Source: Escherichia coli
GTDB taxonomy: Bacteria > Pseudomonadota > Gammaproteobacteria > Enterobacterales > Enterobacteriaceae
Reading direction: 5' to 3' (one strand)
DNA: 64,000 bases
Assembly: GCF_003334765.1 (NCBI RefSeq)
Contig: NZ_QOWT01000023.1
The notes beneath the pieces were generated by a model. It had not been told where the DNA came from and did not search any database. It saw nothing but the letters and a program-made list of their open reading frames with translations. How positions within the stretch are numbered: position 1 is the first letter of the stretch; each line of letters opens with the position of its first letter. Of the stretch, positions 63,881-64,000 are shown piece after piece. A program made the position numbers and the translations under genes.

Positions 63881-64000
63881 CATGCATTCGGAAAATATTG
63901 CGGCTTACGTCGGGCTGGATGTGCATAAAGAAACGTTGGCGGTTGCTATTGCTGCACCTGAACGGCTTGGCGAAGTTCGTTATTATGGTACGATTAACAA
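63881..64000 (+). CDS. Partial CDS (N-terminal 40 codons), probable IS110-family transposase, continues beyond the window
   Basis: MHSENIAAYVGLDVHKETLAVAIAAPERLGEVRYYGTIN resembles the IS110-family N-terminus (VGLDVHK...AV); preceded by a GGAGG SD. Confidence 0.45.

Follow-up and report, generated by a model that had tools for sequence, protein, structure and literature searches.

In ISEc11, ISPa11, ISKpn4 and ISEc21 (Siddiquee 2024, PMC11187229) and in IS621 (Durrant 2024, PMC11208160), an RNA from the long end of the insertion sequence (IS) binds the transposase and pairs with both strands of the target; in IS621, this RNA also pairs with the donor ends, and a core dinucleotide is part of each pairing (PMC11208160). 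The element considered here, ISEc45, is listed as 'ISEc45 / RE / IS1111', with a predicted bridge RNA in its right end, in a supplementary table of the IS621 study (Durrant 2024, PMC11208160). We analyzed the end of a 64,000-nucleotide stretch of Escherichia coli DNA (assembly GCF_003334765.1, contig NZ_QOWT01000023.1; 'the window' denotes this whole stretch at its full length). We conclude that the window almost certainly ends inside a copy of ISEc45 (IS110 family, IS1111-type) that is inserted antisense in the transposase gene tnpC of ISEc43, an IS66-family element, and that would move by an RNA-guided mechanism. Reportedly, IS4321 and IS5075 (IS1111 family), said to have been described by Partridge and Hall in 2003, target the 38-bp terminal repeats of Tn21-family transposons; like ISEc45, they would thus specialize on another mobile element, their target being a non-coding repeat and not a transposase codon boundary.

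ISEc45 resembles ISEc11 and other IS1111-type seekRNA elements (PMC11187229) in having a long non-coding region downstream of the transposase gene, subterminal repeats with extensions and no target duplication, and in predicted guide order: of the two guides, the one that pairs with the top strand comes first (5') and the one that pairs with the bottom strand second, with matches that overlap in the target. It differs from the ISEc11/IS1111-type elements compared in its target, an IS66 tnpC codon boundary, and in its transposase, which has 377 aa as against the 330-350 aa quoted for the IS1111 type and which, in the available part of the published identity matrix, is 14-25% identical to other ISfinder transposases (PMC11187229). 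ISEc21 (IS110 type; Siddiquee 2024, PMC11187229) is RNA-guided and naturally targets a conserved motif in the transposase coding sequence of a different IS family, as appears to be the case for ISEc45, but differs in a non-coding region that lies upstream, in the opposite guide order, and in its victim, IS3 (second-D codon region) rather than IS66. IS621 (Durrant 2024, PMC11208160; Hiraizumi 2024; PDB 8WT6) has the two internal loops and the left and right guides including the core that we predict for ISEc45, but differs in its core, CT, and in its REP-like target, and its phmmer similarity to ISEc45 is confined to the C-terminal domain. The literature naming ISEc45, as far as its accessible parts show, appears to consist of genome surveys, in which we found no experiments on the element.

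The identification of ISEc45 rests on comparison with complete copies. Window positions 63603-64000 are identical at 398 of 398 positions to the chromosome of E. coli O111:H21 strain 15A (NZ_CP077477; L001 in our numbering), where the open reading frame (ORF) that the window cuts continues to 377 aa and is annotated by RefSeq as 'IS110-like element ISEc45 family transposase' (WP_000555403). A 401-bp query that ends at the window edge matches this chromosome at 100%. Siddiquee et al. 2024 print the ISfinder ISEc45 protein in their supplement file 6, and its N-terminus is the 39 window residues (MHSENIAAYVGLDVHKETLAVAIAAPERLGEVRYYGTIN); the name ISEc45 rests on this printed protein and on the RefSeq gene name, not on the ISfinder nucleotide entry. 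Complete ISEc45 has 1447 bp (GATGAT...CATAAGA), with a 1134-nt ORF and a right end reading ...TTGACAAAGGTCATAAGA; the window holds 179 bases (63822-64000), the first 12% of the element, comprising the left end and the first 39 codons. These 179 bp are identical to the reference, with zero mutations relative to the intact copy and nothing different detectable, and hundreds of E. coli records share the left flank. The window tail reads ...GAACACGTA GATGATATGACCTTTATATACTCACTATAGCATTGGTGGGATATTCCAGAGGAGGTCATC ATG CAT TCG..., with the start codon at 63882-63884, a Shine-Dalgarno sequence, GAGGAGG, 5 nt upstream (63870-63876), and 39 sense codons without a stop up to 64000. An earlier note, made by a model from the sequence alone, had seen such an ORF start with its ribosome-binding sequence, and both are present, the start lying one base after the position given (63881). 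The same note placed the element at the ORF (63881-64000), which can be refined: ISEc45 starts 60 bp before the ORF, at 63822.

With 278.6 bits, the full-length 377-aa protein exceeds the cutoff (140) of NCBIfam NF033542, 'IS110 family RNA-guided transposase', and the identical copy in L001 contains Pfam PF01548 DEDD_Tnp_IS110 (residues 10-158, E = 2.3e-15) and, in the region beyond the window, PF02371 Transposase_20 (residues 227-298, E = 9e-23). In the C-terminal domain, the protein can be aligned to the IS621 recombinase of known structure over the serine motif, GLVPGEYSSGNS of ISEc45 with GLTPRRYESGSS of IS621 (phmmer, E = 7e-9); ISEc45 GLVPGEYSSG is aligned to IS621 GLTPRRYESG, and the GL-P----S(t)G motif is present (L001). 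At the N-terminus, IS621 YIGIDTAKE and ISEc45 YVGLDVHKE fall in a non-significant phmmer stretch only (score -0.3). The element also has the organization of the IS110/IS1111 group: subterminal inverted repeats within the 7-17 bp range with short extensions (the right-hand partner, AAAGGTCATA, lies 3 nt from the right end), a short left end (60 bp) and a long right end (a 253-nt 3' non-coding region). These results bear out the IS110-family assignment of the earlier note, and in no genome that extends the sequence does the ORF stop soon after the window end without a DEDD domain.

The insertion point is defined by uninterrupted ISEc43. In E. coli O104:H4 (L004), the native element reads ...GAAGAACACGTA^ATTTTTCTTTCCGAG..., i.e. 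CACGTA^ATTTTTC (caret, insertion point), and occupied copies read ...CACGTA-GATGATATGACC...(IS)...GGTCATAAGA-ATTTTTC...; the comparison shows that the 1447-bp insertion duplicates zero target bases. The native target is CACGTAATTTTT, with the synonymous counterpart CACGTAGTTTTT, and its left half, CACGTA, occupies window positions 63816-63821, adjoining ISEc45. On the coding strand of tnpC, the insertion falls between AAT (Asn) and TAC (Tyr) of LGKKN^YVFFGSDHGG, with ISEc45 antisense to the gene. ISEc45 lies exactly between the Asn and Tyr codons of G(K/R)KN^(Y/W)(V/L)F, and therefore tnpC is split; RefSeq labels the ISEc43 3' stretch in L001 and L002 as IS66 family transposase missing the N-terminus. 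The ISEc43 terminal repeat (GTAAGCGTCAACGG...) is placed at 63603, where similarity to native copies in five other contexts begins exactly, at GTAAGCG.

The same position is occupied in other IS66 lineages and in other phyla. The comparison covered six ISEc45 copies in the E. coli sample and, in a wider scan with one genome per species, 39 relatives. E. coli variants lie at the homologous position of two further diverged IS66 lineages: CATGTA^ATTCTTTTTCCC (IS682-like; L105, L106) and CATAAA^GTTTTTATTTCC (L104). Position and orientation are constant across the three IS66 lineages of E. coli and across five distant relatives for which both junctions could be read (Nitrosomonas, the planctomycete Limnoglobus, a sphingomonad metagenome-assembled genome (MAG), Rhodobacteraceae and Novosphingobium; L007, L010, L012, L014, L015; 56-68% aa identity), and one readable junction of the same kind is found in L008, L009, L011 and L036; all junction-bearing relatives, which also include Trabulsiella and Acidobacteriota, span 56-72% aa identity. 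The five both-junction relatives have ends GATGrnATGACC... and ...GGTCATAAGA, and their joined flanks encode, in frame, ...G(R/K/W)KN^(W/Y)LF...; a sixth, the planctomycete L013 (both junctions), has a degenerate motif. Three joined flanks match the NCBIfam IS66 transposase model NF033517 in one stretch across the junction, two with 353 and 277 bits (cutoff 180) and the third, a 123-aa piece, with 104 bits. The relatives share a common IS66 codon boundary, and we conclude that site-specific targeting is therefore a property of the whole clade, which has ~55-70% identical transposases and extends over Gammaproteobacteria, Betaproteobacteria, Alphaproteobacteria, Planctomycetota and Acidobacteriota. 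A more distant group (~47-53% identity) has ends GATGTTTTGACC... (L017, L019, L020, L022, L028) and ...GGTCAAAACA (L026, L027, L040) and quite different flanks, ..TAGACAT^ and ^TATCAG..; this group has apparently been retargeted to a different site. Within the window, we found neither a second ISEc45 target nor a right end.

Analysis of the 253-nt region that follows the stop codon predicts an RNA with guides for this site; all RNA results are in silico and come from ISEc45 copies in other genomes, the region lying outside the window. The minimum-free-energy fold has z = -2.61 and a long closing stem around two internal loops, and this architecture recurs in an RNAalifold consensus of 12 clade members, with 22 pairs, 11 of them with compensatory changes. 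In loop 1, the 5' strand GUAAAAGAAUUC (AAGAAUU(C)) is predicted to pair at the right junction with top-strand GAATTTTT (8 pairs, one of them G-T), and on the native target with AATTTTT; the 3' strand CACGUAGAA (CACGUAGA) has the sequence of the left flank CACGTA followed by that of the first element bases. Where the target is uninterrupted, both loop-1 pairings include the dinucleotide that straddles the insertion point and overlap there. In loop 2, AUAAGAG on the 3' strand corresponds to ATAAGA^G where the ends are abutted (right end plus first left-end base), and AUCGUC on the 5' strand is complementary to the left-end GATGAT. The left guide varies with the flank: GCAGCCAGA occurs with ..AGCCA, GCAGGUAGA with ..AGGTA, and GCACGUAGA with CACGTA. 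Guide-flank identity is 5.27/6 for cognate as against 3.81/6 for non-cognate combinations (permutation ~1e-4; indicative only, the sequences being related). L104 and L105 have the left guide CAUAUA instead of CACGUA, with flanks CATAAA and CATGTA (5/6 match each), and in L106 the guide stays CACGUA yet the flank is CATGTA; single guide mismatches seem to be tolerated in nature. The abutted ISEc45 ends contain TTGACA, a 17-nt spacer and TATGAC, a candidate junction promoter with a weak -10 element.

According to the hypothesis that ISEc45 moves as do the characterized IS110/IS1111 elements, to which we reason by analogy, the 253-nt 3' non-coding region would be transcribed into a bridge (seek) RNA that directs a DEDD/Ser recombinase, the loop-1 guides would meet on a core dinucleotide at the insertion point, as described for IS621, and exchange would be a conservative, core-directed recombination without target duplication. 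The target dinucleotide would be A^A in ISEc43, the counterpart of the central AG in a predicted circle junction CATAAG-AG-ATGAT; the predicted circle-junction sequence is CATAAGAGATGAT under the AG register and CATAAGATGAT under a GA core. The dinucleotide would be A^G in most relatives, those with Asn codon AAC, and A^A in ISEc45, L010 and L014, and in all four AA-target lineages the left junction reads AG and the right junction reads AA; if this is the true reading, these junctions would be natural evidence for strand bias in integration. As far as the sequences go, conservative recombination, the 7-nt match of AUAAGAG and the overlap of the guides by two bases are all consistent with the one-base-left register (A^G or A^A). 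A GA core common to target and donor, suggested by the GA at both junctions, was considered and rejected for integration, native in-frame IS66 genes (L004; the relatives' joined flanks) having no GA at the site.

GA does occur at rare sites. Eight of 3729 matching E. coli records have CACGTA-GA-ATTTTT in an ISEc43 without ISEc45, with tnpC annotated 'frameshifted'; the additional GA, in the sequence CACGTAGAATTTTT, lies exactly at the ISEc45 insertion point (window 63821/63822 equivalent). The +GA sites occur in two contexts: one adjoins a protein kinase and IS21 (FORC/NCCP strains, strain 3059), and the other is the same espI island as in the window (strain 102651). In NCTC9082 (L102 1518-1560), the +GA is accompanied by an extra T eight bases away in a T-run, which restores the frame (LGKEKFYVFF in place of LGKKNYVFF), and the gene is listed in RefSeq as an intact ISEc43 family transposase; the extra T looks like a compensatory repair of a scar. 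Among 57 metagenome matches to the site, the +GA is absent. Judged from the letters of the junctions, the +GA may be the scar of an out-of-register ISEc45 excision between AGA repeats at the two junctions. The possibility that +GA sites are the main docking sites was rejected: there are only eight records in two contexts plus one compensated copy, and none in the metagenome matches. Taking these observations together with those on the relatives, we rate as an even call the proposal that ISEc45 and its relatives are an RNA-guided clade specialized on GRKN^W/Y of IS66 transposase genes, with the left guide retuned per host, with the +GA sites of three E. coli contexts as possible by-products of out-of-register excision, and with the AA-target junction asymmetry as a strand bias. 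The ISEc45/ISEc43 literature, mostly genome surveys as far as its accessible parts indicate, yielded no account of the IS66 target, of its conservation across phyla or of the +GA sites.

Several observations weigh against the reading of the window end as an RNA-guided ISEc45 copy. Only 179 bp of the element are inside the window, and the completeness of this copy is a deduction from syntenic genomes. The ISEc45 RNA, circle junction and junction promoter are predictions; several relatives have a weak right donor guide, with no convincing placement across relatives by eye; and an Rfam search of L001 5900-8100 (E<=1) gave zero matches, and therefore no curated family covers this non-coding region. 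The permutation value is optimistic because the sequences tested are related. The ISEc43 target AA and the donor AG differ by a one-base core mismatch, and some E. coli ISEc45 copies are truncated, or have an IS3-family element just after the transposase stop codon.

The last of these observations would also favor an alternative in which the window's ISEc45 copy is a dead remnant, with the transposase truncated or the 3' RNA region disrupted beyond the window. Truncated E. coli copies are found in which only 1-199, 1-291 or 414-757 of the internal query is covered, records with the left junction (401-bp query ending at the window edge; at least 80% covered in 882 E. coli records) outnumber those with at least 80% of the interior covered (644 records from 606 genomes), and an IS3-family element follows the stop codon directly in O104:H4 and in L006. 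But all five syntenic genomes annotate a complete ISEc45 transposase, followed by the remaining ISEc43, strain H3 has both the gene and the right end intact, and the part of ISEc45 inside the window is without mutations relative to an intact copy; we regard a dead remnant as improbable. Far less credible still, to the point of being negligible, is the alternative that the ORF arose by chance or opens the gene of a DEDD protein of non-IS type, for instance a Piv-type invertase. The window shows no more than 39 codons, and these alone matched no NCBIfam model, but the 398 nt are 100% identical to annotated ISEc45, an element whose ends are defined, which has a subterminal repeat and which recurs at a specific target.

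A different alternative concerns history: that is, the ISEc43 copy may already have carried ISEc45 when it reached the island, as a composite moved by trans-mobilised IS66 transposition or recombination, so that the split predates arrival. The identical ISEc43-ISEc45 junction lies behind unrelated left DNA in L001 (IS4-like gene) and L109 (IS630), and the junction query is covered to at least 80% in the 882 records given above. But strain 102651 has, in the same espI island, ISEc43 without ISEc45 and with +GA at the insertion point, which points to ISEc45 activity there, and independent insertions in three diverged IS66 lineages indicate that ISEc45 targets the site de novo. We consider composite arrival possible but rather doubtful, and the identity of the feature is unaffected by composite arrival or in-place insertion. 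Pure hitch-hiking inside ISEc43 was considered and rejected: it explains the many identical junctions, yet is insufficient because variants occupy two other diverged IS66 lineages.

Coordinates are collected in Table 1. Five complete genomes have the espI / IS3 fragment / IS66 fragment / IS66 fragment / ISEc45 arrangement of the window, at 99.6% identity. In strain H3, the order is intact 377-aa ISEc45 transposase and intact right end, the rest of tnpC ('missing C-terminus'), tnpB, tnpA, an IS66 fragment and iha; the expectation that the IS cluster continues past the window is thereby confirmed. The earlier note had also held that the second IS66 fragment was truncated by the insertion: interruption by ISEc45 stands but truncation does not, since in the syntenic genomes the remainder of this ISEc43 copy follows complete ISEc45, and the copy is split rather than truncated.

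Table 1. Coordinates of the ISEc45 and ISEc43 segments at the window end and of the +GA sites in other E. coli genomes.
Feature	Position	Strand	Basis
ISEc43 (IS66-family) 3' end, 219 bp: terminal inverted repeat GTAAGCGTCAACGGAGCACCGTATTGACGC... and last 62 tnpC codons (...YVFFGSDHGGERGALLYGLIG...LTNK-stop)	63603..63821	-	alignment to native copies
tnpC ORF remnant	63633-63818	-	ORF list
ISEc45 non-coding left end, 60 bp: GATGA extension, subterminal repeat, Shine-Dalgarno sequence	63822..63881	+	comparison with uninterrupted ISEc43 in L004; occupied copies concordant
ISEc45 subterminal inverted repeat, 10 bp, TATGACCTTT	63827-63836	+	partner AAAGGTCATA at right end of L001
ISEc45 DEDD transposase/recombinase gene, 39 codons + 2 nt, with first catalytic-Asp motif GLDVHK	63882..64000	+	translation; 100% identity to WP_000555403 gene
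+GA sites	L003 7042-7080; L005 2518-2556; L103 3018-3056		E. coli genomes

Further observations concern the surroundings of the insertion and other copies of the element. A 1363-aa ORF at window 58826-62917 corresponds to what the syntenic genomes annotate as EspI, a serine protease autotransporter, which places the window in an espI/iha pathogenicity-island region with abundant IS1, IS3, IS66 and IS110 debris. ISEc43 is itself inside an older IS66 remnant, and the IS elements of the espI island are nested three deep. At window 63171-63220, a 16-bp IS66-type terminal repeat piece (GTAAGCGTCAACGGAG) abuts a different IS66-type terminal repeat (GTAAGCGTGCAGCAAGAACCGTATTGACGGGG), which suggests that IS66 ends are nested or rearranged in one more layer here. 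In L107 (O104:H4 FWSEC0009; ~1925-2801) and in L006 (~1095-1500), an IS3-family element lies a few bases past the ISEc45 stop codon, and the predicted RNA region is therefore removed or displaced. L006 is a 99%-identical ISEc45 on a contig of a MAG labelled Collinsella and probably reflects Enterobacteriaceae DNA in the bin. On plasmid pB-9427-2 (L108 ~660-721), the left flank of ISEc45 reads ...GTTCCATGGCAAGA^GATGAT and the adjoining ISEc43 3' end lacks ~150 bp next to the junction, a sign of a neighbouring deletion or of secondary recombination.

The finding is an ordinary one and is already known, because ISEc45 is catalogued in ISfinder and RefSeq, bridge RNA has been predicted in bulk, and the ISEc21 precedent has been published. 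For the window, the annotation is settled: the last 179 bp are ISEc45, the preceding 219 bp are the 3' end of ISEc43, and ISEc43 resumes past ISEc45. For the family, the same target in distant phyla, the covariation of guide and flank, and the rare +GA sites could inform core register and strand choice in bridge recombinases, as an increment to the known mechanism. ISEc45 is a clean natural example of what appears to be an RNA-guided IS parasitising, and inactivating, the transposase gene of another IS family.
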